Of a DNA stretch of 64,000 bases, positions 2,336 to 63,034 are shown piece after piece. Below the pieces are notes generated by a model. That model worked only from the letters and a program-made list of their open reading frames with translations, ran no database searches and was not told the DNA's origin. Each line of letters starts with the position of its first letter. The stretch's first letter is position 1. Source of the stretch: Escherichia phage CMS-2020a; the sequence record CP053388.1; one strand, 5' to 3'. Made by a program: the position numbers and the translations under genes.

Positions 2336-2384
2336 CCTGTCAGCGCCACAATGATAGTAAATTAGTACTTACTTATCCAGATAC

Positions 2385-2720
2385 TTAAGCCTCAAATACT
2401 TGTCTGAATGTAGCAGTTAAGACACAGTACCCCTGATATCGCTTGACCGTATGACTGTCACATACAACTACAATCCGTTTTCCTCTTGGATTAACCCAAT
2501 AGAACGACTCAACGCCTGCTCGCTCAGTCAGGAAGTCATCGATTGCATTAATTTCGTTGTATGATCTGGTAAAGGTTAACGACCATTCTTCTTTAATACG
2601 ATTAAGACCTTGAGCCTGTCTCTGCTCGTAGTCATCACCAAAATTAAGTACCGTTACATTCGGTTTTACGCTCTTTTCAGATTCGTAATCTGGATACCAA
2701 TTAAACGTTTGTCTTTCCAT
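2385..2720 (-). CDS. Minor tail protein, lambda gpM-like
   Basis: 111 aa ORF immediately downstream of the tape measure gene; size and position match gpM. Confidence 0.6.
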   Translation of the reverse strand: MERQTFNWYPDYESEKSVKPNVTVLNFGDDYEQRQAQGLNRIKEEWSLTFTRSYNEINAIDDFLTERAGVESFYWVNPRGKRIVVVCDSHTVKRYQGYCVLTATFRQVFEA

Positions 2721-2762
2721 CTCACATCCTTGTGAGACTGCCCCGGTCGGGGCAGTCGATAG

Positions 2763-5700
2763 TTAGTTACGTTGAGTGTTTGGGTTGAGTGATCCGCCAG
2801 GGCGTTTCTCTTGAGCGATAGTCTCAAGCGCGATTGCTTTCATCCGTTGAGCGGCATTGTTCCATATGCTTTCTGTATCGCCGGATTCAGTTGTGCTACC
2901 GTCACTATGGACGTTGATCTCAATTGATACCGGAGAAAGAACATTTCCTCCTCCACTCATACCATCGGTACTGAGCGTTACAGGGATTGTTCGACCATCA
3001 GGCAATGGAACATACGCCTCATTCATATCGCCTTCCCCAAACAACGCCAATTGAGGTGAGTTGGCGATACCGCCTTTCTGGTATGCCCGGAGCGGGATCA
3101 CGCCGTCTTTTCCGAATATGCCACCATTTGCAAACTTCGGAATTGCAGGAATACCATTCGTGCCATCGGCAGCAGAACTGGTCAGATTGTTGAACCCGGA
3201 AGTTGAGCCAGAAGAACCGGACATCAATCCATCGAATCCACCACCAGCCCATACTGAAACCAAACCAGATGCAACTGTCGCGCCGAAATTCAACCACTTA
3301 TTACCAGAGCCGGAAGCATTAGCTCCAAGCATTGCAAACGCGGCAGACAGAGCGCCGGTAACAGAGCTGAGGTTCTGCATCGAGAAGATGGAGTCCTTCA
3401 CTGCTTTTGTCTCAGCATCTTTGGCTTCGGTGCTATCAAATAGCCCCGATACCCAGCTACCAATCGCATTTGTTGCTGTGCCAATTGCGCTGGTGGTCTG
3501 CTGTGTTGTTTGCCCCAATCCAGTTACCGAACTGGACGTCTCCTTCGTGGCTTCTCCTACCGACTTGTCGCCATTAACAGTGTTGCCCATTCGTACACCT
3601 TGATTGGCAACGGCAGAAGCAACTCCAGTGAGCAAATTGCCACTCTGTGAACTACCAGCTGCGGTGGTTCCCATCCCCAACATGTTCATTAGAGGCAGCG
3701 TGATTTGCGACTTCACGACCATATTGGTGATATCTTTCAAAATGGACTGAGATAGGCTGGAGAAGCTCATCTTCCCGTTAATAACGAAATCAGTCAGGAC
3801 ATCAGTTAAGCCACTAAACAAATCAGTCCAGGTGCTTTCGATCTGCTCTGCCAAGTTTTCGTATTCCAGTGCCAACTTCTGCGTCGCAGTCCCCGTCTCT
3901 TTAATAAGCGCGGTATTGCCAGCAGCAATCAGTTGATTGATTTTCTTTGTATAAAGCGCCACAACTTTAGGATCAGACGCCTTATCACGAAGTTCTATCA
4001 ACGCTTTGAGATTGCGGTTGTAGGTGTCTTCGAAATCAGCAACTTTCTCTTCGCGAGACGGCGTATAGCCAGCACTAATAATGGAATCCGCCTCCGGTGC
4101 CCAAGTGGAGATCATCTGCTCAACATTGCGGCGATTAAACATCTCGCGATATTCAGGTGTCGCATTTTTGAGGTCTTCAAGACGTTTTTTCGCCTTGTCG
4201 ATCATCTCTTGAGTGATGAACTCGTTAGGTACCGCATTAGCCAAATCTGTCAGCGATTTCGTTGTATCGCGAAGAGACTGATCAAACGATACCGTAGCCT
4301 TAGAGCTTTCACCCATTTGCCCCATAAGCTGATCAGCTTTGTCCAGAGCCTTCTGGTATCCGGCTGCCAGTTTCTGTTGCGCTGCCTGTTCCTTCTTGGC
4401 CGCACGCTGCGAGGCGTTAGCTGATCGTTGGGCTGCTTTCTCGGCAGCTGCTGCATCCTGTTCACGAGCTTTAGTAAGTGCGGCAATGGCTGCGGCACGC
4501 TCTTCATCGCTCATTTTCTCCAGAGAGCTGGCACTGGATGCTTTCTGCAAATTAAGCTGCGTCTTGAGTTGTTTAGGCCCAATAATCGGCTTACCTTCGA
4601 AGTCCATCATCGGAGTGCCGTCAGGCAAAGTACGCTGATAAGTCGCAGAATCCATCTGGTTTCGCATATATTGCGCCAACGCCTTCTGAGCAGCTTTATC
4701 AGTTGTACCTAACCCAAGAACAGTCCCCTGGTTTGACATTACGCCCTTACCAGTTTTGGCCGCGTTATCTCTCTCGAACTCTGCCTGAGTCAGCTCCTGA
4801 GCAACGGCTTCCAAATGCTCCTGATAACCACGAATACTGCCTTGCAGTTTCTGGATCTGCTCGGTATTTCCATCCTTTTTGGCTTTTTCAAGCTGATCAT
4901 TAAGAGTCGCAATTTGCTTCTCGGTCGCATTCTTACGAGAAGAAAGTGAATCAACCAGTTTTTGCGCAGGCTCCAGATAGCTTTTGTTTACCGTTTCACG
5001 TAACGGTGCCAATAGCTTGTTCTTTTCGTCATCTGAAAGTGAACCGTCATCATTGATTTTCTGGATCTTATCCAGAGCCTCTTGCCGGGCTTTCACGAAT
5101 GTTGCCGCGAAAATCTGGTTTTCCGCTCGAATTTTCTCAATCTGAGATTCGGCAGCCTCTTTAGCCAAACGCTTTGCTACAGCGCCGTCACCAAGAGCTA
5201 TCGTGCCGGTTATCTTTTGATACTCCTCCTGATTTTTTTTCAGGCGTGCTTCGATGTCAGCCTTCGACTCTTTGTGAGTAATAACACCGGCAGAGTTAGA
5301 TACGTAATTAACACCCTCACCAGTTTTTAATGCTCGTTGATCAGCAAGAATCTGCTTTTCGAGCTTTTCTGCGCGGTCGGCCATTTGTGCACGTTTGGCC
5401 GCTGTCATCGCTTCTGGTATTTTCCTAATCTCGTCAACGACCTTTGAAGTTTCGCTGCGGAGCATGGTCATGTACGTGATTAGGCCAGCAACAGCTACAG
5501 TGGCAACTGTAAATGCTGCCCCTATAGGGTTTGCTGCAATGAACGCCGTTAATCCAGCAAAAGCGCCTTTAAGCCCCGTAATCGCCCCACGGATGGCGAA
5601 AATAAGAGAGGGGATCGGAGCCAGCCCCATACGTGCCGCACGATTGAATCGAGTTACTGCTGTAGCGCCGAGGTTAAATGGAGTCTGTATGGCGGTCGCC

Positions 5701-8061: not shown

Positions 8062-8844
8062 TTAATCTGCGGGGTTAATCGTTACTGACTTAGTTGCCTT
8101 CTTACCACCGCTATTGCTGGTGAAGGAGATATTTGTAGAACCCTGCGCCACACCACGTACCAGACCCGTTTGATCTACCGTGGCCTTTTTCTGGTCTTCG
8201 GATTCCCAAACACCGGTTTTGTCTGCGGCATCAGCTGGAGTAATTTCGACTGTCAGTTGCACAGTCTCCCCTGCTTTTACAGTTGGAGATTCCTGTTTGA
8301 TCGACACGGTTTTTACCGGTTTAGGACCGCTCATTTTGCCCAGAACGCCTTCATCATCCGGGTATGCGCTGAACTGAACAGAGAACACACGAACATCATC
8401 AGACTGGTAGGTCATAGTGAAGTTGCCCGCGGTTGCCGCTTTCGGGATGGTCAACACATAGTCGGTGGTGTCCTGCGGAGTCAGAACCAGCTCCTTCGCC
8501 ACATCAATCAGGTTAACGCCCTGTGCAGATGTGATCGTGACAGAGCTGTCATCTTCGCTCAGAGTAGAACCAGGCATCAGGTCAACCATGTTTTGGAGTA
8601 CAGACTCAGCCAGAGGCGCGGTGATGGTAATGTTGCGCCCCTGAACTAATTCGGAAATTACGGTCTGCCCCAACTGATCGACGGTGACTTTCAGCGTTTC
8701 AGTGGCTACTTCAACCTGAACACCACCTTTGGTGTAACCCAAATCCACACCACCAAACGACACCTTACAGGCACCAAGTTTGATGTTTTTTACATGGGTA
8801 TTAGACATTGATGGAAAACTCCTTTTTCCGTTAATTCTACGCAT
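8062..8844 (-). CDS. Major tail tube protein, lambda gpV-like, with C-terminal Ig-like (Big_2) domain
   Basis: 260 aa; C-terminal about 80 aa show the Big_2 pattern (VKAGETVQLTVEITPADA...ATVDQTGLVRGVAQGSTNISF); palindromic motif upstream at 8868-8885. Confidence 0.75.
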   Translation of the reverse strand: MRRINGKRSFPSMSNTHVKNIKLGACKVSFGGVDLGYTKGGVQVEVATETLKVTVDQLGQTVISELVQGRNITITAPLAESVLQNMVDLMPGSTLSEDDSSVTITSAQGVNLIDVAKELVLTPQDTTDYVLTIPKAATAGNFTMTYQSDDVRVFSVQFSAYPDDEGVLGKMSGPKPVKTVSIKQESPTVKAGETVQLTVEITPADAADKTGVWESEDQKKATVDQTGLVRGVAQGSTNISFTSNSGGKKATKSVTINPAD

Positions 8845-8882
8845 TCATTGCGCTAATAGTAAGTATATACTTACCAATTGAG

Positions 8883-9239
8883 TTAATTCAATAAATAGCC
8901 AGCAAATTCAACAGGAATGCCTGCTTCTATTAATGCCCCATCATTTTTGGGATAAATGATTGGCATCGCCATCGGTCGTACAAGTCGAAAATAAACACCA
9001 CCAGATTCCGTTTCCTCTACTGGAAACATCTCAATGATTTTATTGGCTTTCTCAACCGTCGTAGTAATTGACGAACCACGCACAATGATTGTGAATGATT
9101 CGTGATAAAAGCCCTGTAGCTCATGATCGATGCTGATACCGGTATTTGGGTTAATAAGCAGGACGCCAGATTTCACATTGGCAGGCAAGTAGTGACAGAA
9201 AATGTCAGTCCCGACCGTGCCAATCTTTGCCTTCTGCAT
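8883..9239 (-). CDS. Tail terminator protein, gpU-like (start adjusted to internal ATG at 9239)
   Basis: Track ORF 8883-9389 overlaps the upstream gene by 122 nt; the internal Met (MQKAKIGTVG...) at 9239 removes the overlap. Position just before the tail tube gene. Confidence 0.45.
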   Translation of the reverse strand: MQKAKIGTVGTDIFCHYLPANVKSGVLLINPNTGISIDHELQGFYHESFTIIVRGSSITTTVEKANKIIEMFPVEETESGGVYFRLVRPMAMPIIYPKNDGALIEAGIPVEFAGYLLN

Positions 9240-12388: not shown

Positions 12389-12461
12389 TTCTTGCTCCTA
12401 CAAAAAGGGTGGGCGTATAGCCCACCCTTAAACATAGATAATTACTTATCTACAACACTGA

Positions 12462-14250: not shown

Positions 14251-14271
14251 AAAAATTCCTTTTGTTACTTA

Positions 14272-15846
14272 TCACTCGTTCTCTTGAGTAGATGAGTCCC
14301 CATTCCCTCGGGGTTGATCTTGCCCGCTTTCTTGGGCTGCACCACGATAATAAGTAAGTACTGACTTATTTTCAAGGGTATTTAGATCATTTTTTGGAGG
14401 AAAATTCAAGAGATCTTTATCAAATTCCTTTTTCATCGCCTCAGTAATGTTCGGGAAAATCTTCTCAATAAGCATTTCCATCTGGTGACGACGTACAGAG
14501 TCCGGTGCCTGAAGTAATGACAGTTTCTCGGCAACAGAAAATTCATCAGTAAGGCCACGAATATCGAAACTTTCTGGATACGCAATTAAAGAGTGGTCTT
14601 CGTCCAGATCTGCCCCCATCCATTTCGCAACCAGTAGCATGATTTGGCGTTCAGCCCTTTCCAGACGCTCTGCTTTTGTGACAAGCAAGCTATTTACACG
14701 CTGGAAGTCATACATTTTTGCGGCACCAGATGAATTATCGATTCCCTGTGCGTTGTCCTGCTTCGTTCGCTCACCAGCTACACCAACTGAATGGTAGATT
14801 TCGTTAATCACCGTCTTAATCGTAGTGATGATCATCTGAGCTTGTTTCGGGTCTGGTGACAGATAAAACGGCTGGTTTCCACCTTCAGAATCGTAGGTGA
14901 AGACTCGCTTTGTGCCCATTTCAAGCACTTTAGTGTGGTTTTCATCACCAGGTAAAAGCGACTGTACCGGTATAGCCAACTGGCTAAATGTCTGATCCTG
15001 AATAATGGCATCAAGGTTTGACAGATAGTTTGCAACCGCACGATCAAGATAAGCGATATCATCGATCAACGATGGGCTGAAATACGGTGATTCACTTTCT
15101 CCAATACAATCAACAGGAAACACAGGAACTACGCCGAGATTATGCTCACCGCTATCCTCTAAAATAACTTTTGCCTGACGGCGACCTGCTCCACCAGCGC
15201 CCTTCTTCACTTCCTCACGGAACAGATACCACTCGTTTTGTGTCCACAGACGATAACGTTGGTATTCCTGACCTGTAGAAGTAAAAGGATCTGCGTCATC
15301 ACGAGCGACTTCCACAATTAACGCCCACAACATATTCCCGTCGTCGTCCCATGCCACATCCAGCATTTGCTGAGGTGAAATCCAGTAGGCGTAGGCGCGA
15401 GCATCTTTCTTTTTCTCGTCAGCTACTGACTCAACATCACCACTCATCGTGCTATCGACAACAACCCATATGCGACCGTAAATAGACGACTGCAAATCAA
15501 TAGCGGCCATAAATGAGTCAATAGAGGCATTCTGGCGAGTCGCACGTTTCCAGAAATTGCGGATCTGCTCTGGTGCCTCTTCGATATTTCTATGAATGTC
15601 TTCTTTAAAGAGATATTTGTTGATGAGGTTTACCACCTCACGAGTGTGGTTGAAGCGATAAGCACGTTCAACTCGCTCCTTAAACTCCTGATCTCCCTCT
15701 TTAAAGTAACGAAAGATATTGTCTGTAAACCAACCACGCCCGCCAGCGTAAGTGCTGGCGAGGAAGTCCCAATGTTCTTTTTTCTTTTCGTATTCCGGGT
15801 GGCGTCGCGCCACCAGATCCTTAATTTGTTTGTCGTTCAATTCCAT
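14272..15846 (-). CDS. Portal protein
   Basis: 524 aa ORF immediately downstream of the terminase large subunit; size and position typical. Confidence 0.7.
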   Translation of the reverse strand: MELNDKQIKDLVARRHPEYEKKKEHWDFLASTYAGGRGWFTDNIFRYFKEGDQEFKERVERAYRFNHTREVVNLINKYLFKEDIHRNIEEAPEQIRNFWKRATRQNASIDSFMAAIDLQSSIYGRIWVVVDSTMSGDVESVADEKKKDARAYAYWISPQQMLDVAWDDDGNMLWALIVEVARDDADPFTSTGQEYQRYRLWTQNEWYLFREEVKKGAGGAGRRQAKVILEDSGEHNLGVVPVFPVDCIGESESPYFSPSLIDDIAYLDRAVANYLSNLDAIIQDQTFSQLAIPVQSLLPGDENHTKVLEMGTKRVFTYDSEGGNQPFYLSPDPKQAQMIITTIKTVINEIYHSVGVAGERTKQDNAQGIDNSSGAAKMYDFQRVNSLLVTKAERLERAERQIMLLVAKWMGADLDEDHSLIAYPESFDIRGLTDEFSVAEKLSLLQAPDSVRRHQMEMLIEKIFPNITEAMKKEFDKDLLNFPPKNDLNTLENKSVLTYYRGAAQESGQDQPRGNGDSSTQENE

Positions 15847-15872
15847 TTGAATAACCTTAGATAACTACTTAC

Positions 15873-17129
15873 CTATCGAGAACCACCAAGAATAACACGG
15901 TTTTTGACTGGATACCTACGATGTACTGGATAGCCCAATGCGTCTGCACTATGCTCAATGCCACCTGTCTTATCCATATCTCGTGTTCCAGGCTTGTAGA
16001 TGACTTTTTCCAGTGAATCAATCAAATGCTTGCACTTCGGATCGATATACAGCCGGATATCTCCAGATGCGGACATCAGCATTCGGTTAACAGCATTAAC
16101 ACGATCCGCAATTGGCGGGTGCTTTTTCGAATAATCGACACGTAAGAATCCCTTCTCTTTGAATATGTCTACGTCAGACTCCCCACGAGCATGTTGGCGA
16201 TAAGCACCTGCCGGATCTGGAAATACCGTTACCTGTGATTTCCAGCGCCAGAAGCGTCTCTCAAGCTCATCACAAACTTCTGCCGTGTTAGAGGAAAAGA
16301 GCACCAATTCATCAATTGCCCATAGCTCACCATTTGGCTGAGGTTGCAAAATTACTGAAGACATCGGGTCAATGTTGAAGTCCTGCCCTACCCATATAGG
16401 CAACCGAGGGTTGAACTGAAGCGGTTTTACATGCACGTTACGATCGAACGGGTAGTAAACGCGCCCGGACATGTTCTCAAAGCTGGCCAGGTACTCCTGA
16501 GCGAACGATTTGGGGTCCATATCGTTCTTAGCAGCTTCAATTTCCGCCGTAGGTACAAACGGAGAATCGGCAGTTACAAACTGCCAGCTCTTCCACTGTC
16601 CCTTTCTTTGCAGCTCTACGTTCTGGCCTATCGTCCACAGTTTGTGAAATTCCGAGAAGCCTTTTGGCGTACCAATGATCAGTGCACCGCCGCGTGTCGA
16701 TGAAAGAGTAGGTCGTAACACCTTGTACCAGGTGTCAGCCTTCATATCCTGAAATTCATCAAGCACTACAAAATGCAACGCTACGCCGCGCAGAGTGTCA
16801 GGCTTATCAGCACCTTTGAGGGCGATCTCCGAACCGTTCTTCAACACGATTGTCATCGTGGTGTCGTTCTTTTTCCTAACCCACTTACGAGGCAGAACTT
16901 CCTGTAGATCGTCCCACAAAATCTGGCGAGCCATCTGGTAAGTAGGAGCGACATACCAGACCCTTTGCTTTTTTTCCTTTGCCGCCGCACGAATAATAGT
17001 GGAGATCGACAACCGGGATTTTCCCCAGCGTCGACCAGCACAAACAACTTTAAATCGATGCGGAGACTGGAAGACTTTCATCTGTCCAGAATGCAGTTGC
17101 ACAAGACTGAGCGAGGACGGGATTGCCAT
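15873..17129 (-). CDS. Terminase large subunit
   Basis: Walker A (VVCAGRRWGKS) and Walker B (HFVVLDEFQD) in the N-terminal ATPase, acidic residues in the C-terminal half; ATGA overlap with the upstream small subunit. Confidence 0.85.
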   Translation of the reverse strand: MAIPSSLSLVQLHSGQMKVFQSPHRFKVVCAGRRWGKSRLSISTIIRAAAKEKKQRVWYVAPTYQMARQILWDDLQEVLPRKWVRKKNDTTMTIVLKNGSEIALKGADKPDTLRGVALHFVVLDEFQDMKADTWYKVLRPTLSSTRGGALIIGTPKGFSEFHKLWTIGQNVELQRKGQWKSWQFVTADSPFVPTAEIEAAKNDMDPKSFAQEYLASFENMSGRVYYPFDRNVHVKPLQFNPRLPIWVGQDFNIDPMSSVILQPQPNGELWAIDELVLFSSNTAEVCDELERRFWRWKSQVTVFPDPAGAYRQHARGESDVDIFKEKGFLRVDYSKKHPPIADRVNAVNRMLMSASGDIRLYIDPKCKHLIDSLEKVIYKPGTRDMDKTGGIEHSADALGYPVHRRYPVKNRVILGGSR

Positions 17130-17761: not shown

Positions 17762-17867
17762 AGATCCCTCTAAAACACACAGAGCGCGTCCATGCGCTCT
17801 AAAACAACTTGTTTACTGCATCTGCTAACCAACTTGTTTTCTGGGGTGTTTAATTAGGTCTGGCATG

Positions 17868-17922
17868 TCTTACGAAGCCTGCTTCCGTATATATTTAATA
17901 AGTTACTTATTATTTATATATA
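17868..17922. promoter_or_regulatory. Imperfect 55-bp palindrome, copy 1 (probable bidirectional terminator or regulator site)
   Basis: cctgcttccgtatatat...atatatacagaagcagg with an AT-rich centre; near-identical copy at 47953-48020. Confidence 0.5.
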
Positions 17923-17956
17923 CAGAAGCAGGTCTTTAAATAAGCTCCCAGACCGA

Positions 17957-18223
17957 TTACATCACCAGTAACTTCGCTTTGGCTCGACCTAAAGTAGTTA
18001 ACCCAAGAGTTCGGCGGTGATAGCGATTGTCACTGCGTTGGCGCGTATGCCCTTTCTCCACCAGCCCCTTTTTTATCAGAGCGCGAATTGAGAACTGGAT
18101 ACTTTGCTTGGTTGTCTTGTACGGCAAAACTTCAAGCAATTCGTCCAGGTCAAGTAGATGACCTCGCTCATAACCGAGATTGAGCGTTTTGATGATGTCC
18201 TTTTGTTTATCGGTTAACGTCAT
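17957..18223 (-). CDS. Small DNA-binding protein (winged-HTH-like), hypothetical
   Basis: 88 aa basic ORF, last gene of the ParB/ATPase operon. Confidence 0.4.
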   Translation of the reverse strand: MTLTDKQKDIIKTLNLGYERGHLLDLDELLEVLPYKTTKQSIQFSIRALIKKGLVEKGHTRQRSDNRYHRRTLGLTTLGRAKAKLLVM

Positions 18224-19383: not shown

Positions 19384-20014
19384 ATTCCACCTTCACGCGT
19401 TCTTTGTAGTGCTTGGTGATCTGCATATCCGGGCGCAGCGCGTTCTTCAGGTCTTCGTGAGTCGTCGCCACCATTACCGTCGCACCAACCTTTCGAGCGG
19501 CACGCTGGAGGTTAGATGCCACAACCTGAGCGGTTACACGGTCGAGAACAGCGCCGAACTCGTCAGCAGCCCACACTTTAGCGCCTGACTCAATCAGTTT
19601 GGCAATCTTGAGACGATATTTCTGACCGTCTGACATTTCAGAAGGCTTGCGAACAAACAGATATGCATCGTTCAGACCAGCCATAGATAACAACCCAAGC
19701 GCATCACTGGTAGTTTTGCCCAGTTGGTCAATGACGTTAACCTCATTATCGAAGGTAAAATCATCGATGGAGGCCACAGATAGCCCTTCATCCTTCATCT
19801 GGTGTTGCAGCTCGCGCAGCACAACGGATTTGCCGGAACCGGATTGGCCGGTAATGTACACCACATCGCCCTGCTTCACTTCCAGCTCCAGATTGTCGTA
19901 AAGCGTCCACTCTTTTTCGTCCAGGCCAAGCCCGAACGACTCAGCGATTTCCAACGTGCGCGTGGTTTTATTTACGCGTGTCTGAAACGATACGTTGATG
20001 ATGTATTTGCTCAT
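19376..20014 (-). CDS. Minimal ABC-type ATPase
   Basis: Walker A GQSGSGKS, signature-like SDGQKYRLKIA, Walker B VWAADEFG, H-loop ATTHE within 212 aa. Confidence 0.65.
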   Translation of the reverse strand: MSKYIINVSFQTRVNKTTRTLEIAESFGLGLDEKEWTLYDNLELEVKQGDVVYITGQSGSGKSVVLRELQHQMKDEGLSVASIDDFTFDNEVNVIDQLGKTTSDALGLLSMAGLNDAYLFVRKPSEMSDGQKYRLKIAKLIESGAKVWAADEFGAVLDRVTAQVVASNLQRAARKVGATVMVATTHEDLKNALRPDMQITKHYKERVKVEYA

Positions 20015-20679
20015 GCAGCCATCTCCCCGGAAGAGATCTTCTCCGCATATGCCACAAATGCGTCTACCCCGCTTTCTCCCGTCATTTCTTCCATGTGGGC
20101 AAGCAAATCACCAACAACAATGGCAGAGCCAGCAGGGAGCGTTTTAAAGCCCAATACGTCGACAACACGTACTTCTTCCGCTGCAACTTCACGACTGATC
20201 TCGGTGTGTTCATCCTTCTGTCGTTTAGTTTCTTCGCCAAGATCGATAACTAGCGAGTCGGTGTCCATTTCTTCTGTCATACTGCCAACGAGAACATTCA
20301 ACTCACGCTCTTCAAAGCCGAAAACCTCGATATCGTCCAGAACAAGCGACTCAAGCTCTTTCTGTAGCTTAATTGCATCGTAATCAATGCTGGCAAGTCG
20401 GTTATCTTCAAGGCGCTTCGCACGAACCTCGTCATCACTGAGATCATCGCGAACAATAACCGGTACGCGCTCAAGTCCAGCAAAAATTGCAGCCTCACGG
20501 CGGCCGTGGCCAGTAATAATTACGTCGTTCTTATCGACCGTAATTGGCTGGTCAAATCCGCGCTTTTTAATGGCTGCGGCTAGATCTCGGATCTGCTGTT
20601 CATCATGCTTTTTGGCATTCATCTCATAGGGAATAAGATCTGCCGGGTCGCGATATACGATTTCAAACTTTTTGGTCAT
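20011..20679 (-). CDS. ParB-like N-terminal domain protein (paralog 2; start adjusted to Met at 20679)
   Basis: ParB/Srx motif ITGHGRREAA; 1-nt overlap with the upstream ParB-like gene and 4-nt overlap with the ATPase gene. Confidence 0.65.
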   Translation of the reverse strand: MTKKFEIVYRDPADLIPYEMNAKKHDEQQIRDLAAAIKKRGFDQPITVDKNDVIITGHGRREAAIFAGLERVPVIVRDDLSDDEVRAKRLEDNRLASIDYDAIKLQKELESLVLDDIEVFGFEERELNVLVGSMTEEMDTDSLVIDLGEETKRQKDEHTEISREVAAEEVRVVDVLGFKTLPAGSAIVVGDLLAHMEEMTGESGVDAFVAYAEKISSGEMAA

Positions 20680-21377
20680 TACATACGCTCCTTGTAGTAG
20701 TCGACCAGCCATACCAGAGCCTCACCAGCGTTCTCCATTTCATTACCGGTGTTAATAGCCTGCTCTTTGATGATGTTTTTTATGGTTTCTGCAACACGAT
20801 CTGACGCATCGAAAGTTACTTTGAAGCGCATGGTCTGATGTTCCGCACCCACACGTTCGGTTTTCTCTCGTTTGTCGGTATCGACAGGCTCATCACTACC
20901 ACGAGACAACGCCTCCAGTGCTTCAAGGTCGATTGCCGCCTCTTTTGCTAAAACCATCGAGATTTCGTCGTCATACGGGGCGATTTCAGACAGTTGATAG
21001 TCAAGTTCTGACTGAATTTCTTCAATGAAGCGTTGCAATGCGATTTGGTCGTCTTCACCGTATCGCTCGTTGTCCACCAGTGACATCTGTTTAGCTACGA
21101 CATCGCTAATTTTGCCCACAGAAAGCACCGGAACCGTTGAAATTCCTTGCTCAATAGCAGCACGCCAGCGATGTTCGCCGCCGAGGATTTCAAAAAATCC
21201 ATCTTCAAGTTCACGAGCCAAAATTGGCTTAAAAAAGCCCAATTTTTCGATAGAACCTTTCAGTTTTTCAAAATTCTGCGCACCAACCGAATTGGTGTTC
21301 CAGGTATTCGGGCGAAGGTTGGCAACATCAACCTGCAAAATCGTGATTTTTACATCCATTTTATTGCTACAATCCAC
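20679..21377 (-). CDS. ParB-like N-terminal domain protein (paralog 1)
   Basis: Classical ParB box ILGGEHRWRAA; first gene of the operon, divergent from the helicase gene. Confidence 0.7.
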   Translation of the reverse strand: MDCSNKMDVKITILQVDVANLRPNTWNTNSVGAQNFEKLKGSIEKLGFFKPILARELEDGFFEILGGEHRWRAAIEQGISTVPVLSVGKISDVVAKQMSLVDNERYGEDDQIALQRFIEEIQSELDYQLSEIAPYDDEISMVLAKEAAIDLEALEALSRGSDEPVDTDKREKTERVGAEHQTMRFKVTFDASDRVAETIKNIIKEQAINTGNEMENAGEALVWLVDYYKERM

Positions 21378-21392
21378 TAAGTAATCACTTAC
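21367..21392. promoter_or_regulatory. Palindromic motif B in the divergent promoter region
   Basis: actaagtaatcacttacttat between the divergent ParB-like and helicase genes. Confidence 0.45.
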
Positions 21393-21441
21393 TTATTATA
21401 ATAGCCAAATAACATACAAAAGGCACTAAGGAAAGAGGTTT

Positions 21442-23350: not shown

Positions 23351-23773
23351 ATGAAATACTCGCTTCTCCCTCTACTAACGTTACCAGTGTTGATGCTTAC
23401 CGCGTGCCAATCACGCCCAATATCAATCCATGACGCCAAACCAGCACCGCAGGCCAAAGTGTTCAAGTATCAAAGCGCAGCGCCAGCTACGTTGGTGGTA
23501 ATGAGAGACACAGGTTTTGTAGGAGCTGGATGTGATGCTTCCATTTTCATCAACGGCGAAACTGTCGCAAAACTGGCTACAGGCGAAAAAGCGACTTTCC
23601 ATTTAAATGCCGGAGTATTAATTGTGGGTGCATCTCTTGAAGGTGCAGGTTTATGTGCTCTAAACCCCGCTCGTCAAGAGCGAGAAACGACTCTGAAGAA
23701 TGGAGACACAAAAGCGTTCAGGGTGTTCACCAGCAATTCTGGTGACATCGACATTCTGCCAACAACTCTGTGA
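23351..23773 (+). CDS. Putative lipoprotein (start adjusted to MKYSLLPLLTLPVLMLTAC)
   Basis: Signal peptide with lipobox L-T-A-C; track ORF begins 14 codons earlier. Confidence 0.55.
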   Translation: MKYSLLPLLTLPVLMLTACQSRPISIHDAKPAPQAKVFKYQSAAPATLVVMRDTGFVGAGCDASIFINGETVAKLATGEKATFHLNAGVLIVGASLEGAGLCALNPARQERETTLKNGDTKAFRVFTSNSGDIDILPTTL

Positions 23774-23777
23774 TGAC

Positions 23778-27152: not shown

Positions 27153-27356
27153 GATTAATTCCTTATCGTAAATAACAAATTGTTTTCTTGTTGGTGTTAA
27201 TTATCGTTGTACGAATAAGGCGTCAAAGTGGAAAGTTGCGGTAGCCGGACGGGAACAGGTGGGTTTGTCGGTTGCCTGGAGGTAAGAGGTTGGTGTTTTT
27301 AGCCTGCGGGAAACAAGATGGTCATTTAAGGCCACCAATGCTGATGGCCTTAATAA

Positions 27357-28390: not shown

Positions 28391-28455
28391 TTCACTCTCC
28401 GTAGTGTTTTGGTTATTTTTATATTCTATGATAGTAAGTATGTACTTACAATACA

Positions 28456-28828: not shown

Positions 28829-28981
28829 TACAACTCCGTAAACAACTTGTTTTCTCAATGGCGTAAATAATACCAGTAAGAAAACGGCTACAAAGCATAT
28901 TGATCAGGTGCATGAGCGATATGCAGGTTCTTCCCTGCGGCTATAGAGAAATTAAGCCAGCATTGCTGGCTTTGGTTGGGG

Positions 28982-31944: not shown

Positions 31945-31956
31945 TTCAACTACTCC

Positions 31957-32022: not shown

Positions 32023-32053
32023 AGGGCTTGTGTAAATCAGGAGGGATTGTGTC

Positions 32054-35824: not shown

Positions 35825-35840
35825 AATACTCGCCTCTTAA

Positions 35841-35860
35841 TACTGTATACACATACAGTA
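35841..35860. promoter_or_regulatory. LexA (SOS) box
   Basis: TACTGTATACACATACAGTA = CTGT-N8-ACAG palindrome, 17 bp upstream of the UmuD'-like start codon. Confidence 0.8.
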
Positions 35861-41432: not shown

Positions 41433-41492
41433 GTGTTTTCTCTTATCGTTTAGTTACTACATTCTTACATAAACTAAGTAAGTATTTACCTA

Positions 41493-43178
41493 TCATTTAA
41501 CGCGTTTGAAAACGTATACGCTGACTGTGATCCCTGTGTCTTCAAACTCGTTGGTAAACGACTTCCCTCTGGCATAAACGTAATTATCCATCGTCATCCA
41601 GTCCAGTATTGGCGCAGTGCCCGGCAATACTGCTACAAGACGCCCGCCGACTTTCAGATGCCCCAGCGCAGCCAGCGTGTGCTCTCTATGACGACCAAGC
41701 GAGTACGGCGGGTTCATAACGATTTTGTCGAACTGATAACCTACGTTGTCCTCAGACCACTTTATGAAGTCGCAGCAAATCGTGTTCGTATACCCTTTTC
41801 CGCGCAGGATATCAGCGAAGAGAGGTGCGATTTCTATGCAGGTAACATCTTCCAGATCGGCGTTGATATAGGCCAGAAGATCCCCACGTCCGGCTTGAGG
41901 CTCCAGCAGCTTCTCACCAGACTTCAATTCAGTGGCTCTGGCAACGTACTCAGCAATCAAGCGTGGGGTAGGGTAGAACTGGTGTGATTTTGTATCCGGT
42001 ATTAATCCGGTAGCCACAATCGTATTTAGCGTATGGCCGATCTCATACGGGAACTGCCAGTGTTTTTTCTCCTGCACGCCGCCAATGAAGCTCAGTGTGC
42101 GCTCAAGCTCTTCCACCTGCGACTTCTGGAGAGCTGAATCAGAGAAGTACCATACGCCTTTGTCTTTGCTCAATCGCCCGTCACGAAGCGCAGTGCGAAC
42201 CGGCACGGAGATCGTCTTCTGGATTAACCCGAACTGCTTTGGTGCCCGTGTTTTTGGCGCAGTTCGGCATGGCGCGGGGATTGCAGCAGGCATACTGTAA
42301 GCCAGCACCTCATTCAACTTCCAGGCCACGTCAGGATGTATTTCAAAGTGAACGTTGCCGTTCTTGAACATCTTCACGCGCATCAGATTTCCATCGACGT
42401 TCATCCAGTCACCGGTCTGGCAGTCGTTTGCTCGATACGCAGCTGATAGCACCTCAGCAGTGCGGTTGATGGTAATAAATTCTTTGTGCGCGAAGAAATG
42501 AAGCAAGACACGCAGATCGTCGATGTAGTCCTCTTTGCGATAGTTCACGCTAACGCTGTCCCGCCAGAAATCAGAAATGCAGTCAGCGATTATCAGACGC
42601 TCGCTGAAACCGTTTGTCTTATTTGTCTTGTGCGCAGGACTCAGCGCCTTAAACAAGCCATACACGCGCTCAGAGAGATATTTGTGCCTGTCATTCAGCA
42701 AATTAAGCATCGTGGGTATGACCGTTTCTGCTTTGAACTCCGGTACACCAACGAACTCTTTAACCTTCATCTGGTAGCCGGTTCTGTCAGTTTTGATGAC
42801 TTCCTGTTTGCCCTCTATAAACTGCTCGCGCCACTCATCTCGACGGGAAGCTGGCATGATCAGCAAAACGTTAGTCATGTCCGTGACCTTCCTCCAGTAC
42901 TCGGCCCAAATATTCTGTTTCACCCATTCCAGATCGACTTTATCCAACCAACCTCGATTTAAACGCGAGCGATCTTCATCTGGTCGATGGTTTAGTCTCA
43001 GCAGGCGATTAATCATGTTGTGGCGTTCGTCGCCATAAACGAAGTCGTGTACCTGATACATGAAGGCGATCTCTTTCTCGCACTCGGCCACAATTTCGTG
43101 GATGACGTTCATTTCCTGCCGATAGTCGATAGCAGTGTTTGAGTTGGCATCGTCGATGATGGAAAGGGCTGTATTCAT
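41493..43178 (-). CDS. Large protein with C-terminal N6-adenine (or N4-cytosine) methyltransferase domain
   Basis: FYPTPRLIAEY, motif I-like LEPQAGRGDLL, then motif IV IVMNPPYS within the last about 180 aa; N-terminal about 380 aa of unknown function. Confidence 0.55.
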   Translation of the reverse strand: MNTALSIIDDANSNTAIDYRQEMNVIHEIVAECEKEIAFMYQVHDFVYGDERHNMINRLLRLNHRPDEDRSRLNRGWLDKVDLEWVKQNIWAEYWRKVTDMTNVLLIMPASRRDEWREQFIEGKQEVIKTDRTGYQMKVKEFVGVPEFKAETVIPTMLNLLNDRHKYLSERVYGLFKALSPAHKTNKTNGFSERLIIADCISDFWRDSVSVNYRKEDYIDDLRVLLHFFAHKEFITINRTAEVLSAAYRANDCQTGDWMNVDGNLMRVKMFKNGNVHFEIHPDVAWKLNEVLAYSMPAAIPAPCRTAPKTRAPKQFGLIQKTISVPVRTALRDGRLSKDKGVWYFSDSALQKSQVEELERTLSFIGGVQEKKHWQFPYEIGHTLNTIVATGLIPDTKSHQFYPTPRLIAEYVARATELKSGEKLLEPQAGRGDLLAYINADLEDVTCIEIAPLFADILRGKGYTNTICCDFIKWSEDNVGYQFDKIVMNPPYSLGRHREHTLAALGHLKVGGRLVAVLPGTAPILDWMTMDNYVYARGKSFTNEFEDTGITVSVYVFKRVK

Positions 43179-44804: not shown

Positions 44805-44943
44805 GTGTTTTTCCTAATGCTTAAACAAGTTGTTTTCTTATTGGCTTTATTGTGATGTGGCATAAAAGGGGAGCAAGCTAAACGTAAAGGTGCAAACTCT
44901 CTATTTCGGTCAACGAAACACAAGGGCCATTTGGCCCTTGTCA

Positions 44944-45527: not shown

Positions 45528-45620
45528 GTGCTTTCCTTTTATTATTTGTCAAAACAAGTTGTTTTCTAATTACATAAATTGCTTACGCAGAGATGGTCAA
45601 TGCATATGCACTAACAGCCG

Positions 45621-46313: not shown

Positions 46314-46461
46314 GTGGACTCCATCCAGTGTCAGAAAGAGTTGCGGCTGGCGATTGCCAGCCGCCTTTCTCGTTCCATCCTGGAACTGTGTCTTACCGAC
46401 ACATTGTCATCCTGACGCCGATAAGATACATGATTTAAAATGATAGGTAAACACTTACTTA

Positions 46462-47052
46462 CTATTTATTATAAACAAAACCAATATCTTTCTTGTGAGG
46501 CATATCTGCTGCTGAAAAAGCTGCGATCTTCGCGAGTCGATCACATATTTCATTTTCACGATGCCCGGCGTGACCTTTAACCCACTTCCAGCGAACATTA
46601 TGTCGACTTGCGGCCTCATCCAGACGCTTCCACAGATCAACATTCTTTACCGGTTTTTTGTCAGAAGTCATCCATCCATTGCGTTTCCACCATTTCATCC
46701 ACTGTGTCATGCCGTTTTTCAGATACTGGCTATCAGAGTGCAAAATAACGTTGCATGGATATTTCAAACGCTCCAGCCCGATAAGTGCCCCCATCATCTC
46801 CATGCGGTTATTGGTGGTGCTATGAAAACCATCTGAGAACTCGCGTTCCTCTCCACGATACTGAAGAACGATACCGTAACCGCCCGGGCCACCCGGATTT
46901 TTAAGGCAAGAGCCATCACTGAAGATTTTCACGGTTTTAAGCTGGGGATTGAACTCTACGACAGGCGTTGTGGGATTGGTGCGGGGAGAATTTTTGTTTT
47001 TGGCTTTTTTGCGAGTTTTCGCTTGCGATCGGGCTGGTGTCTTCGTCGTCAT
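46462..47052 (-). CDS. rnhA: Ribonuclease HI (start adjusted to MTTKTPARS)
   Basis: Strong match to E. coli RnhA ([75 protein letters not shown]) with a basic N-terminal extension. Confidence 0.9.
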
Positions 47053-47136: not shown

Positions 47137-47635
47137 ATTACTTCCCAGAACAGGTTTTTATAAACCTGAACTGAACGAACGAAGTGAGTGAAGTTCACCT
47201 CGAACGAAGTGAGAGGTTGTCTTTTCAGGTAATACTCTCCCAGGGAGGTGAGTATAAAAATCTCTCACCAACCTGGTCGTTTCATAACCTGAAAAGTTAT
47301 GGTCTAAGTCTACTGCCAGCTTAGACTTGGGAAGTTATGGATGACAGCACCCCAGAACCGAGATCTTCCCACACTTTATGAAGGGGAGTACTGGATTCAA
47401 CCTCTCGAAACACCCCAGACTCGACAATCATAAAGTGACCCTTGTCTCTGCTCACTTTGGTTCCCCCTTCCCCGACACCTAAACGGCACCAGTTCTACGC
47501 TGGTAGTGAGCTTTTTTTAAACCTGACGCCAGTGACGCTTACCCCCACCCATCAGGTCGAGTCTCCAGTCTACGACTGGAAACTATCAGATCTTAGCACT
47601 TACAATTCACTTTATGAATAGTTTGTACTTATCTA
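47137..47635. other. About 500-bp non-coding region with several stem-loops and short direct repeats
   Basis: Direct repeat cgaacgaagtgag (x2), hairpin caggtttttataaacctg, long-range inverted repeat cttttcaggt...acctgaaaag; no ORF of 60 aa or more with an RBS. Confidence 0.4.
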
Positions 47636-47866
47636 TCATTGTGATTGATTATTTTCTCTACCATGTAGTTGAACATTCAAGGCAAACACCTCATTGATCA
47701 ACTCACCTAAAAGCTGTTCAACAAGTTCGCGATGCTCGCCAAGATGCAAGCACTTAATTGCCCATTCGTACAAGTTGAAAGCCTGCTCACGATCTTTCAT
47801 CATTTCACGAGCCTGGGCCAGAAAATCGCTCTCTACGAGCGCAACGACATTAGTCGGGTATGACAT
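47636..47866 (-). CDS. Hypothetical protein (start adjusted to MSYPTNVV)
   Basis: RBS AAGGAAA before ATG at 47866. Confidence 0.45.
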   Translation of the reverse strand: MSYPTNVVALVESDFLAQAREMMKDREQAFNLYEWAIKCLHLGEHRELVEQLLGELINEVFALNVQLHGRENNQSQ

Positions 47867-47952: not shown

Positions 47953-48020
47953 GGAGTCTCTGATACAAAGCTGCCTGCTTCCGTATATTAATAATTAATA
48001 TGTAGTTATTTATATATACA
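47953..48020. promoter_or_regulatory. Imperfect palindrome, copy 2
   Basis: gcctgcttccgtatatt...atatatacagaagcaggc; near-identical arms to the 17868-17922 copy. Confidence 0.5.
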
Positions 48021-48051
48021 GAAGCAGGCTAATTACAGACGCCAGAACAAA

Positions 48052-48645: not shown

Positions 48646-48708
48646 CTTCTTTCTCGATAGGTAAGTATATACCTATTTTTGCATTTGATTTTATGTCTGG
48701 CAATCAAA

Positions 48709-53480: not shown

Positions 53481-53651
53481 AAAAACCTCACAAAGATAAG
53501 TAACCACTTATTCATTGCGTGAGTTTACATTTATTGAGAGAACAAGACCAGACAGATAAAAAAATGGTGGCCATAGGCCACCAAAAACGAATAGTTGTTT
53601 CAGAAATTTAACGCGCCAGCGCAATATACACAGATAGATAACTACCTACAA

Positions 53652-54521
53652 TTATTTTTTGATCATTCCGTACATTGCTGAGGCTTTAGCTTGCTCAACA
53701 AAGGAGGATAAATCGACATCACTATAGGTTGGAGACTTCAGAATCTTTCCATCGGAAATTCGAAAACCGATCATCTTATCGGTGCCATCAGCATGGCGAA
53801 ATCCCAGGTCAGAAGAGTCGTATTTGCAGTTGGCCACAGCATGGCGACGCTCTTCGGCATCTGCAGGCCATAATTTTGTCATGTTGGACCGATGAATTTC
53901 GCCAACCAGCTCGACGACATTGATACCGAGAAAATCAGCCAGTCGATAAGTCATCATGCACGCCACATAGATTTTGTTCATTACACGGCGCAGTTCCTGA
54001 ATCAGCTCAGAATCCTTAACAGTCTTCTTCTCAAGTTTATCTGCCAGCTCTTCGAGCATACATGACGCCTCACGAGCTTCCTGAAATGGCATTGCCATAT
54101 CATCGAAAACAGTGTTACCAGGCACAAAAATTGTCTGCATAAAGCGATCAATGCTCTGTTCCTGCGTGTAATAAGTCATGCCGGTAGAAATACCACCTTT
54201 GATGGCGACCATCGTACCAACACCAACGTATAAAAAGTCGGCCATTGCATCCAGCAGTTGCTCAATATCCCCATTCATTGCGGCTGGAATACCTTCCACT
54301 ACAGCTTCTTCATGAATCAGGCTTGCACGGAGACGAAGCAGCTCTGGTGTCGGCATAACGCGTCTCGGATGCTGGAAGAGTTCATGAAACTGATCGACCA
54401 TCTTGTAAATACTTTCAGTGGCTACACCATGGCCTTCATGCAACTCATATGGTTCTGGCTTAAATCCAATGAGTCGATCGGTGGCAAGTTTCAGGTGGTC
54501 AGTCAGTTTGGTAAAGTTCAT
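53652..54521 (-). CDS. MazG-like nucleoside triphosphate pyrophosphohydrolase (tentative)
   Basis: 289 aa with EExxE...ExxD-like segments (LIHEEAVVE...DIEQLLDAMADFLYV), apparently duplicated; weak. Confidence 0.4.
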   Translation of the reverse strand: MNFTKLTDHLKLATDRLIGFKPEPYELHEGHGVATESIYKMVDQFHELFQHPRRVMPTPELLRLRASLIHEEAVVEGIPAAMNGDIEQLLDAMADFLYVGVGTMVAIKGGISTGMTYYTQEQSIDRFMQTIFVPGNTVFDDMAMPFQEAREASCMLEELADKLEKKTVKDSELIQELRRVMNKIYVACMMTYRLADFLGINVVELVGEIHRSNMTKLWPADAEERRHAVANCKYDSSDLGFRHADGTDKMIGFRISDGKILKSPTYSDVDLSSFVEQAKASAMYGMIKK

Positions 54522-55741: not shown

Positions 55742-55847
55742 GTGTTTTTCCTTTTTCTTTTTTGGTGTGTTTAAACAAGTTGTTATCTTATGTGTTTAAA
55801 CAAGGCTTACAAATCAAAGAGAAGGTGGGGATATCCCCCACCATATG

Positions 55848-58163: not shown

Positions 58164-58236
58164 GTATCACCAAATAAAGAGGGCCACTAAATATAGTGGC
58201 CCATGTTAATAGATAAGTACTTACCTATCAATGAAA

Positions 58237-58806: not shown

Positions 58807-58815
58807 ATAGTCTCC

Positions 58816-61465: not shown

Positions 61466-61694
61466 ATAACACCTTTGATACCGTGTGTTAGCTTTTGACC
61501 TTCTTTCAATCTGAACTCCGTATGCGCCGGGAAGGATCTGCGCCTCAATACGCCTTTTCTGGTTAACCTTCCAAGATAAAACGCTACGGGATTTCCTTGT
61601 GGCGGGTAGGGCTTGTGAAACATCACCGTCTGGCCTCGTTCAAGTCTTTTCATCGTGATGGCAAAGTCTCGAAAGCTCCCATAACGACTTTGCC

Positions 61695-62780
61695 TCACAC
61701 AGCCTCCGAACTCTCCGCTTCGGTGAGGATTTCCTGACACAAAATATCCAACTTGCTCAGATCAAATCCGCCGTCAGTATCGTGGACAATCTTGCAATAA
61801 GCAGATACCGACTCTCCCAGGCTATCGATTTTGCTGGTTTCCGTTGTGCTTGCTGTCCCTTCCATCATTGATGACTTACGGATGAAGTTGCACACGACAC
61901 CTTTTGCACCCATTGTTTTGAGGATGTTCTGGTACTTAATGCCTTCTTCATCGTTCTCAATTACGGCGCGGAAACGCACGTAGTTGCCGCGAATTTGGTC
62001 ATCGGCAACATAATCTTCCAGGTTAATGAATTTAGGCGCACTGGTTTCGTAGTGACTGAAACTGCCGTCCGGGTTTACGATCATGTAACCAGCCAGAGAT
62101 CCAACATCTCCCCAATTTTGATGGGTCAGCGCACCGACACTGATAACTCCAGGAATGACCTCTTTGTGGTTGTGGTAATGCCCACTAAGCACGAGACGAA
62201 AGCCGATATCCTTTAACTCCTGCGCATCGATACCGACGTCAGGCATTGTTGGAATGGCTTTGTTAATGGATGTATGGATAACAACGTCATGATTATCACC
62301 TTCTACACTCTTACGTAATGCTTTCAGATCGCTGATAAGCTCCGCATGATTGTTACGCCAGCTAATCAGGTGGACAGTCACATCACCAATTTTTATTGAG
62401 TGTGGGCGTTTGCCACATACGATTACCACGCCGATAGAACTCAGCGATGCTGCTGCGTTGGCGCTATATACTGAATCGTTGGTTTCAAGATCGTGATTAC
62501 CGGCCAGCATTACTACTGTCAGATCAAGCTCGTTGATAATCCACTTGTACGTTTCAGTTACGTAATGCAAAACAGAAGGGGACACAGTTCCTCGGACGTG
62601 AAATGTATCACCGGCAACCAACATGTACTTACAACCGGCCTTCTTCATGGCGATGGCTGCTTCTTTCGTTGCTTCCAACTGTATTTCAAGTCTGGAGTTA
62701 AGCCCCTCTGCGTTCGTCGTGGAGAACGCATCCCATTTGTGGTAGTGGCAGTCAGAAATGACGCCGTATGGCAAAGTCAT
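61695..62780 (-). CDS. sbcD: SbcD/Mre11-like nuclease (calcineurin-like phosphoesterase)
   Basis: Phosphoesterase motifs LVAGDTFH, MLAGNHD, SGHYHNH; motif B at 62893-62916. Confidence 0.85.
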   Translation of the reverse strand: MTLPYGVISDCHYHKWDAFSTTNAEGLNSRLEIQLEATKEAAIAMKKAGCKYMLVAGDTFHVRGTVSPSVLHYVTETYKWIINELDLTVVMLAGNHDLETNDSVYSANAAASLSSIGVVIVCGKRPHSIKIGDVTVHLISWRNNHAELISDLKALRKSVEGDNHDVVIHTSINKAIPTMPDVGIDAQELKDIGFRLVLSGHYHNHKEVIPGVISVGALTHQNWGDVGSLAGYMIVNPDGSFSHYETSAPKFINLEDYVADDQIRGNYVRFRAVIENDEEGIKYQNILKTMGAKGVVCNFIRKSSMMEGTASTTETSKIDSLGESVSAYCKIVHDTDGGFDLSKLDILCQEILTEAESSEAV

Positions 62781-63034
62781 GTGTTTTTCCTTTGTGGTTA
62801 TTTTGATACAAATTTTAAGAGCAATGAGAAGGTAAACAACTATGCATAACGGTATGTTATGAATGAAACGAGCGCCTTAATATACAAAATTTATAAGTAA
62901 GTATATACCTATTTATTGTGGCGCAACTTTGCTTGTCTGTATGACTAAAAATAAGACAGGATCACTGTAGAACGCTATGAGAGCTATTTTGAGGAGGCGT
63001 AGATTCTATCTACGCCAATATACGATCTGGAGGG

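Follow-up and report, generated by a model that had tools for sequence, protein, structure and literature searches.

Scattered palindromes bound by a ParB-family protein, such as the KorB OB sites of RK2 and the dispersed Sop sites of N15, have a global effect on transcription, and MarR-type winged-helix dimers bind palindromes of 16–20 bp that overlap −35 and −10 elements and repress by occlusion. In mycobacteriophage L5 and its cluster A relatives, more than 20 repressor sites (stoperators) lie in promoters and short intergenic spaces of early and late operons, and silence the lytic genes of the lysogen (PMC9283540). In the phage-plasmid P1, 17-bp C1 operators stand at early promoters, and each of 11 late promoters combines a −10 element with an adjacent inverted repeat (PMC10695390). 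Here we describe a repeated palindrome, which we call motif B, in a 64,000-nucleotide stretch of Escherichia phage CMS-2020a (CP053388.1; this whole stretch is referred to as the window), a phage-plasmid of the SSU5 group. Motif B is a real, conserved element that acts at the DNA level and is linked to promoters. On what we judge to be an even balance of probability, it is the predicted operator of a dimeric regulator encoded by the phage-plasmid, a repressor of many internal lytic promoters; protein binding, the repressive sign of the regulation and the identity of the binder are points that we infer.

The window shares 97–98% identity over 20 kb with Escherichia phage Cyrano (pLF82) and is ~78% identical to Salmonella phage SSU5 and Klebsiella relatives (megablast). 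With the Cyrano genes mapped onto it, the window runs opposite to the Cyrano record, so almost all of its genes are on the minus strand; 11% of it is non-coding. The SSU5-like family is large, as 826 PLSDB records match the nrdA region, and many of these more than 800 records are from clinical Klebsiella, E. coli, Enterobacter and Salmonella. Such phage-plasmids are frequent in enterobacterial pathogens and are carriers of resistance and toxin genes. Induction of Cyrano by genotoxic stress was reported in the LF82 study (PMC9928086). The silencing of ~100 kb of lytic genes in the plasmid state and the switch to phage production are undescribed for SSU5-like elements in the searchable literature, where we found no account of motif B, nor of SSU5 or pHCM2 regulation, limited evidence of novelty as this is.

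Motif B is a frequent intergenic dyad

A Gibbs alignment in gene orientation and then symmetrised counts of 135 distinct sites, pooled from all the related sequences, gave the consensus aTAr-RTAAGTA-(a/t)(a/t)-TACTTAY-yTAt. Its core is a 16-bp dyad, RTAAGTA-NN-TACTTAY, with half-sites at a fixed 2-bp spacing, which often grows outward by 4-bp xTAx units to 24–30 bp. Positions T2, A3, G5, T6 and A7 of each arm are each present in ~86–99% of the 135 sites.

An earlier note on the window had listed this palindrome as recurrent upstream of many genes, and its copies are far more numerous than chance would give: the degenerate 16-mer RTARGTANNTACYTAY, with up to two mismatches, is found at 17 loci against 2.8 in whole-window shuffles, whilst GTAAGTANNTACTTAC, at the same tolerance, has 11 matches in the window against 0.09 expected. 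Equal frequency inside and outside genes, which the note had named as grounds for giving up the idea, is not what we see; 15 of the 17 loci are intergenic, against 0.49 expected and a maximum of 3 in shuffles of the intergenic DNA alone, and motif B words were also recovered by an unbiased 7-mer enrichment in intergenic DNA. All three sense frames are closed by just four of the 15 sites, so the intergenic placement is not forced by stop codons, and the explanation that motif B is intergenic merely because stop codons fill all frames was ruled out. A copy in the portal gene shows that the motif can sit in coding DNA, with TCA in place of the frame-stopping TAA.

Twelve of the 15 copies listed in that note are good sites, with coordinates off by up to 9 bp, the extreme being the perfect copy placed at 8868–8885, whose true core is 9 bp away at 8859–8874. 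The other three did not hold: 14265–14275 is a half-site only, 47618–47638 is weak (three mismatches, good left arm only) and 17890–17905 marks the middle of another element, a long inverted repeat (CCTGCTTCTGTATATA...TATATACGGAAGCAGG) present three times per genome. To the list we add cores at 14350–14365 (portal 3′ end) and 53634–53649 (after the MazG stop codon), and a weak one at 63799–63814. Many copies directly adjoin the preceding gene's stop codon (−4 to +18 nt). The distance from core to start codon is 14–153 nt in the window (164 nt with the weak copy at 47621) and 1–164 nt across Cyrano; the 10–50 bp first suggested describes eight of the 14 good cores (nine of 15 with the weak 63799 copy), the others falling outside this range.

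Conservation across SSU5-like elements

We compared four lineages: Cyrano, SSU5, a divergent Klebsiella plasmid (OW968253, 70% identical) and Moellerella plasmid pW1-b (67% at nrdA). Cyrano carries ~28 motif B loci and SSU5 ~27. On the structural side, both have the motif at the TerL|portal boundary, inside the portal 3′ end, and at MCP|Ig, Tc1|tail, tailM|tailL, tailJ|fibre and fibre|holin. They further share it before the helicase-primase operon, at primase|34, UvsY|SSB, RecA|56 and 59|60, before SbcD, at RuvC|NrdA, twice at MazG-ThyX, before Dam, at RNaseH|83, DUF4942|Ead and 106|107, and before ParB. Among the Cyrano and SSU5 loci, none is in the plasmid-maintenance, toxin-antitoxin or replication-initiator regions, nor in the accessory block that bears motif A, a second repeated palindrome described below. 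The Moellerella and divergent Klebsiella plasmids also hold motif B at orthologous boundaries despite changed surrounding intergenic DNA, a retention which spans lineages just 67–78% identical.

Sites at module boundaries would also be expected of repeats that lack a binding function and were spread by recombination, either as a promoter cassette or as short linkers of homology; T4-type phages have mobile promoter-stem-loop cassettes, and slippage could yield the 4-bp periodicity of the extended sites. We consider this origin highly improbable, given that the flanks of different copies are unrelated and the dyad alone is in common, that a symmetric consensus is held at different registers to the −35 and −10 elements, and that the dyad has stayed in orthologous places through deep divergence, with the intergenic DNA around it changing.

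The palindrome acts as DNA

A palindrome of this kind could instead act in RNA, as AU-rich intercistronic hairpins for processing, stability or termination in long operons. The sites are palindromic and intercistronic, often at the upstream stop codon, GC-rich hairpins come after several of them, and in some conditions expression in the lysogen often falls across motif B boundaries. These drops coincide with separate terminator hairpins, and the site upstream of ParB sits in a divergent promoter region. Complementary arm combinations were not enriched over independence at the two variable R/Y positions of 96 distinct cores: mixed R/Y combinations made up 59% at positions 1/16 (50% expected) and 40% at positions 4/13 (35% expected). 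Arm mismatches that a G:U pair would tolerate were about as common as those it would not in the sense strand (G:T vs A:C, 27 vs 26 in Cyrano and 15 vs 24 in SSU5), and a search of Rfam gave zero matches in the window. Both arms hold the same sequence, which goes beyond mere pairing. With no arm covariation, no G:U bias and no Rfam match, we reject the hairpin, which retains very little probability.

As the arms vary independently, each appears to have been selected separately towards the same sequence, and this is the signature of a protein dimer, which would read two half-sites with centres 9 bp apart.

Promoter context of motif B

A simple consensus scan already put five of its 25 minus-strand promoter-like matches on motif B sites, including the best of the structural region, TTGAAA-17-TATTAT. 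A count of TAnnnT by offset detected no fixed −10 element downstream of the palindrome and nothing outside the motif, and a two-hexamer position weight matrix (PWM) was needed to reveal the promoter context. Applied to 90-bp windows around 75 sites from the four lineages, with a 9-bit threshold that exceeds the 95th percentile of random windows, it scored 39 of the 75 as sigma-70-like (≥9 bits) on the gene strand against 8 of 75 on the opposite strand, and the difference between sense and antisense strands held per lineage with Wilcoxon p = 0.002, 0.001, 0.07 and 0.003. A symmetric dyad cannot by itself produce such a strand difference, which must stem from −35 and −10 elements selected in the flanks.

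The offset from the −10 element to the dyad centre spans −17 to +33 and forms three groups. At +9 to +13 (plus +5 and +8) the dyad is in the spacer, centred near −20 to −26; at +22 its right arm, TTTACY, doubles as the −35 element; and at negative offsets it lies over the start site, for example in the Dam promoter and in the ParB promoter, where TATAAT abuts the dyad. At nrdA, TTGATA-17-TAnnAT is kept in all four lineages and the dyad slides 3–4 bp between them. A protein bound in any of these three placements would hinder RNA polymerase, and the geometry favours a repressor over an activator working in a fixed register.

We therefore set out the following scheme as a prediction from sequence. 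One regulator, encoded by the phage-plasmid and acting as a dimer, would bind the ~28 copies of motif B in each genome, which stand at gene boundaries in the lytic modules for packaging, head, tail, lysis, replication, recombination and nucleotide metabolism. Roughly half of these copies would lie inside sigma-70-type promoters aligned with operons, with the dyad occupying the spacer, the −35 element or the start site. A protein at those positions would block RNA polymerase, making repression in the plasmid (lysogenic) state the likeliest mechanism; induction would then release the repressor and the internal lytic promoters would fire. Copies outside a promoter context may serve as extra binding or roadblock sites. 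The earlier note had offered either one dimeric phage regulator or a phage-specific promoter class, a view that is supported here, with each computational test capable of refuting it turning out favourably; the two alternatives are mutually compatible, and an operator within ordinary sigma-70-type promoters is a better fit than promoters of a new class served by a dedicated polymerase factor.

The sites might instead be phage-specific, activator-dependent promoters of middle and late genes, with a phage-encoded dimeric activator on the dyad near −22 to −25, as Lpa at the P1 late promoters. Those promoters consist of a −10 element and a 9-bp inverted repeat, AAGTnACTT, at −22 (PMC10695390); AAGT and ACTT are also in the motif B core, and some of the sites have a common register in which the dyad is centred near −25. 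The gap between AAGT and ACTT is 4 nt in motif B against 1 nt in P1, and the register to the −10 element is variable. Many sites have a good TTGnnn −35 hexamer and a 17-bp spacer, and an activator would be superfluous at near-consensus promoters such as TTGAAA-17-TATCAT. In several cases the dyad covers the predicted start, is downstream of it, or is 1–15 nt from the start codon, which is unworkable for an activator, and the sites serve both DNA-metabolism and structural genes, not a single temporal class. Activation is thus in our judgement rather unlikely, although it draws on further evidence from expression and gene order, given below.

Expression at motif B boundaries

Expression of Cyrano was taken from gene-level RNA-seq values for LF82 grown in broth or residing in macrophages (PMC9928086, S1 table). 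After 6 h in macrophages, an S24/UmuD-like gene with a LexA box was up 3.5 log2, so the SOS response was on there; in the window, a perfect LexA box (CTGTATGTGTATACAG) is found at ~35840–35870, in front of this gene (35435–35824, minus strand). At the same time point, genes right after motif B sites were induced above other genes (Mann-Whitney p = 0.004) and above those at gap-matched boundaries (p = 0.018), and boundaries with a higher predicted promoter score tended to show a stronger rise (Spearman 0.43, p = 0.05). The best-scoring sites, 59|60 (+4.1 log2), 55|56 (+3.9) and 11|12 (+3.1), rose most, followed by 71|72 (+1.7), 80|81 (+1.5), portal|4-5 (+1.1) and 106|107 (+1.0). This is modest and indirect evidence that the promoters at motif B sites are real and fire on partial induction. 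RNA-seq does not separate derepression from activation, and the rise of genes after motif B sites is also what an activator would produce.

Candidate binding proteins

One candidate in the window is a minimal winged-helix protein of 88 aa (17957..18223, minus strand), encoded just upstream of the small terminase gene in an operon that is preceded by a motif B site. Its AlphaFold2 model has a mean pLDDT of 82 and resembles MarR/MepR-type regulators (Foldseek TM ~0.74); Pfam gives no match for it, its SSU5 counterpart shares 88% identity, and its family is confined to SSU5-like elements. Its gene is at background in the lysogen (LB) and rises at 6 h in macrophages. Late activators are often encoded just upstream of the small terminase gene, and a gene in this place which is off in the lysogen and up in macrophages would suit the activator described above, as would the presence of motif A, and not motif B, at promoters of the accessory region, in the manner of the C1 operators of P1. 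Neither blastp nor phmmer detected a homologue of P1 Lpa itself (best E-value 0.9) when run against every open reading frame (ORF) of SSU5, Cyrano and the window, a search which a remote homologue might escape, and this counts against activation.

Two ParB_N-domain proteins are encoded at 20011–21359 in the same operon as the winged-helix gene, with a motif B site 17 nt upstream of the first. A 16-bp palindrome in many dispersed copies is reminiscent of parS and OB sites, and motif B could on these grounds be a set of dispersed centromere-like sites for one ParB-family protein which double as a means of global transcription control. This we hold to be very unlikely. Motif B has no similarity to known parS or OB sequences; the ParB-like genes have ATPase and terminase genes as neighbours and are off in the lysogen, unlike a partition system; a separate ParA operon in the element is expressed in the lysogen; and proximity is the sole link of the ParB-like proteins to the motif.

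Outside the window, the Cyrano helix-turn-helix (HTH) repressor CYRAN_45 has a motif B-like dyad, GGTAAG-TG-CTTACC, 33 bp upstream of its start, and the small protein CYRAN_37 is a further candidate binder. Pfam and PHROG scans of small ORFs returned only ParB_N, an S24 peptidase, an FljA-like protein and a weak HTH_19 match. The FljA-like ORF (23700–24302, plus strand) matches the family of the repressor of phase-1 flagellin (PF03614, E-value 2.5e-84), has conserved counterparts in SSU5 (SSU5_121) and Cyrano (CYRAN_114), and shows expression in the LF82 lysogen; it may be a moron acting on host motility.

Pairs of GTAAGTAnnTACTTAC-like palindromes also occur in unrelated phages with GC contents from 33 to 59% (IMG/VR L099/L048, L088, L057 and L042/L077), where they adjoin a primase-helicase gene or flank an nrdB-nrdA-thyX cluster. 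Among the ORFs neighbouring these and one further locus (L042, L048, L057, L077, L088, L099 and L119), only nrdA and nrdB are shared with SSU5-like elements. Regulators that read the motif B dyad may therefore be more widespread.

The persistence of one motif across hosts of several enterobacterial genera, together with the lack of an identified phage binder, might point to a host transcription factor in place of a phage protein. The NarL/NarP 7-2-7 site is TACYYMT-NN-AKRRGTA, and the motif B arm TACYTAY fits its heptamer TACYYMT with a 2-bp gap. In motif B the heptamers are everted (AKRRGTA-NN-TACYYMT), opposite to the NarL/NarP order, and why nitrate should control the lytic genes of a phage is not obvious; paired sites of a similar kind in unrelated phages of such different GC content suggest phage-borne regulators. 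We know of no host factor (LexA, Fur, PdhR/UxuR, H-NS, IHF or NarL) that fits the motif B dyad, and a host protein in this role is most unlikely.

Several observations weigh against a repressor encoded by the phage-plasmid. No binding protein was identified for motif B. The winged-helix candidate is off in the lysogen, which rules it out as the lysogenic repressor and would make it a regulator of the lytic phase. CYRAN_45 has no homologue in SSU5, although SSU5 carries motif B. Motif A could equally be the operator of the lysogeny repressor, leaving motif B to a lytic-phase regulator. Around half of the motif B sites have no convincing promoter, and the promoter scores themselves come from a simple PWM, are inflated by the AT-rich motif and have an antisense mean that is also above random. 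In broth there was no systematic change at motif B boundaries, and some drops match separate terminators; the RNA-seq values as a whole are gene-level, close to the noise floor, derived from cells with weak induction or none, and of modest significance.

Motif B sites in the window

The window is arranged as tail, head and packaging genes (1–17.8 kb), the ParB-like/ATPase operon (18–21.4 kb), a variable accessory region (21.4–41 kb) and DNA-metabolism genes (41–64 kb). All motif B sites given here are on the minus strand. In the structural region, the site at the boundary of tail genes M and L (2353..2380, core 2361–2376, one mismatch) is 8 nt past the upstream stop and 25 nt before the start codon, has a sense promoter-like TGGATA-17-TATCAT and is kept in Cyrano and SSU5. 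Upstream of the tail protein gene homologous to CYRAN_12, the site at 8855..8878 contains the perfect GTAAGTATATACTTAC at 8859–8874 (no mismatches) and a TTGAAT-18-TATACT promoter whose −10 element is at the palindrome centre; in Cyrano, the gene after this site goes up by 2.5 log2 relative to the one before it at 6 h in macrophages. Twelve nucleotides past the stop of the major capsid gene, a site kept in SSU5 (12430..12453, core 12434–12449, one mismatch) is followed by a terminator hairpin at 12411–12427. The copy within the portal gene 3′ end (14346..14375, core 14350–14365) is 99 nt before the next gene and inside the best sigma-70-like promoter of the region (TTGAAA-17-TATTAT, score 13.7); it is nearly identical in SSU5 and Cyrano, one base differing, so that the predicted −10 element is TATTAT in the window and TATGAT there. 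Over the stop codon of the large terminase gene and 14 nt before the portal start codon, a site with one mismatch (15853..15880, core 15861–15876) has no promoter-like context, and its SSU5 version is altered in a way that preserves the palindrome.

The site 17 nt upstream of the first ParB-like gene (21373..21400, core 21377–21392, two mismatches) is abutted by a TATAAT hexamer, in a region divergent from a UvsW-like helicase gene; the downstream operon includes the winged-helix gene at 17957–18223. In the accessory region, a site with no mismatches (28430..28453, core 28434–28449) comes after a terminator and is inside TTGTAA-17-TAGAAT.

Among the DNA-metabolism genes, one site covers the stop codon of the DUF4942 gene (41470..41497, core 41478–41493, no mismatches to the degenerate 16-mer), with the next start codon 45 nt on, and another, kept in SSU5, abuts the RNase H stop (46439..46466, core 46443–46458, one mismatch). 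The weak copy at 47613..47640, over the stop codon of the upstream gene, has three mismatches in Cyrano, a good left arm only and a PWM score of 18.7; the small gene downstream (a CYRAN_81 homologue) is expressed in the lysogen. Fifteen nucleotides before the Dam methylase start codon, a site with no mismatches (48653..48680, core 48661–48676) is just downstream of the predicted −10 element of TTGCCA-17-AAAAAT. The site 15 nt before the ThyX start codon (53492..53515, core 53496–53511, one mismatch) has orthologues in SSU5, Klebsiella and Moellerella, and that 2 nt past the MazG stop (53626..53653, core 53634–53649), inside TTGTAG-17-TATATT, is kept with its promoter in four lineages. Upstream of nrdA, a site with no mismatches (58205..58232, core 58213–58228) is inside TTGATA-17-TAACAT and is followed by a hairpin at 58181–58202. 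The last are a site with no mismatches 116 nt upstream of an SbcD-like gene (62889..62916, core 62897–62912) and a possible weak one upstream of an ASCH-domain gene (63795..63818, core 63799–63814, two mismatches).

GC-rich hairpins directly follow several of these sites (58181–58202, 12411–12427, 2325–2347 and ~8835–8850), and for the one before the tail protein gene the SSU5 sequence differs and the fold is the same. For some of these hairpins, the predicted start of the motif B promoter would be within the 5′ arm; read-through from upstream would then terminate there, and locally begun transcripts might not. In the MazG-ThyX gap (53565–53651, minus strand), the conserved promoter-like TTGTAG-17-TATATT has a strong terminator (53565–53583) ~60 nt downstream; the pair could be a small RNA or a thyX leader or attenuator.

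Other repeated elements

Motif A (AAGAAAACAAnTTGTTTT), with ~18 copies in Cyrano, is found in the window at 55770–55800, 45540–45570, 44820–44850, 31950–32060, 28835–28870, 27160–27200 and 17790–17850. Its copies are 5–15 nt downstream of −10-like hexamers before accessory genes, nrdB and the small terminase gene, and it could be another operator or a 5′ untranslated region (5′-UTR) hairpin. The long inverted repeat, CCTGCTTCTGTATATA-(~25 nt AT-rich)-TATATACGGAAGCAGG, is at 17878–17930 and 47973–48029 in the window, with a third copy at 31150–31210 of Cyrano; it is kept in SSU5, and its AT-rich centre sometimes resembles motif B.

Comparison with known systems

Judged on its sequence features, motif B appears to be a multi-copy dyad operator of a kind known from temperate phages and plasmids. 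As in MarR systems, the window encodes a winged-helix protein, here a minimal MarR-like one; unlike them, this 88-aa protein lacks the full MarR dimerisation domain. The likeness to RK2 and N15 is that the two ParB_N-domain proteins of the window adjoin a motif B site, which is a functional analogy only, as the motif is unrelated in sequence and the ParB-like genes are silent in the lysogen.

P1 shares with the window the phage-plasmid lifestyle, two genome-wide classes of site and the AAGT/ACTT tetramers common to the Lpa box and motif B. It differs in that no Lpa or C1 homologue was detected here, that the arm spacing, register and −35 hexamers of motif B are not those of P1, and that C1 operators are asymmetric. 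In a P1 late promoter the repeat is fixed at −22 with no −35 element, a pattern to which motif B does not conform, with its offsets of −17 to +33 and many TTGnnn −35 hexamers.

The L5 stoperators are similar in number and placement, motif B having more than 20 copies (28 in Cyrano), many of them 0–20 nt from the upstream stop codon. The stoperators are 13 bp, asymmetric, bound by a monomer and orientation-dependent (PMC9283540), unlike the symmetric dyad of motif B, which is oriented only through its flanking promoter elements. Repressor bound at stoperators blocks elongation; the drops in gene-level RNA-seq at some motif B boundaries coincide with separate terminators.

We tentatively suggest, as a possibility short of an even chance, that SSU5-like elements hold their entire lytic programme under one palindromic operator network of ~28 sites, with a binder from an uncharacterised regulator family, such as a winged-helix or ParB-like protein. 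The ~28 mapped positions offer bait for the regulator, a target that can be mutated or titrated to influence induction, and a guide to transcription units in the annotation of hundreds of plasmids. If the suggestion is true, motif B would be a master switch between the plasmid and phage lifestyles and the symmetric counterpart of the mycobacteriophage stoperators, and thereby a second case, this one symmetric, of operator networks that span the genomes of temperate phages.

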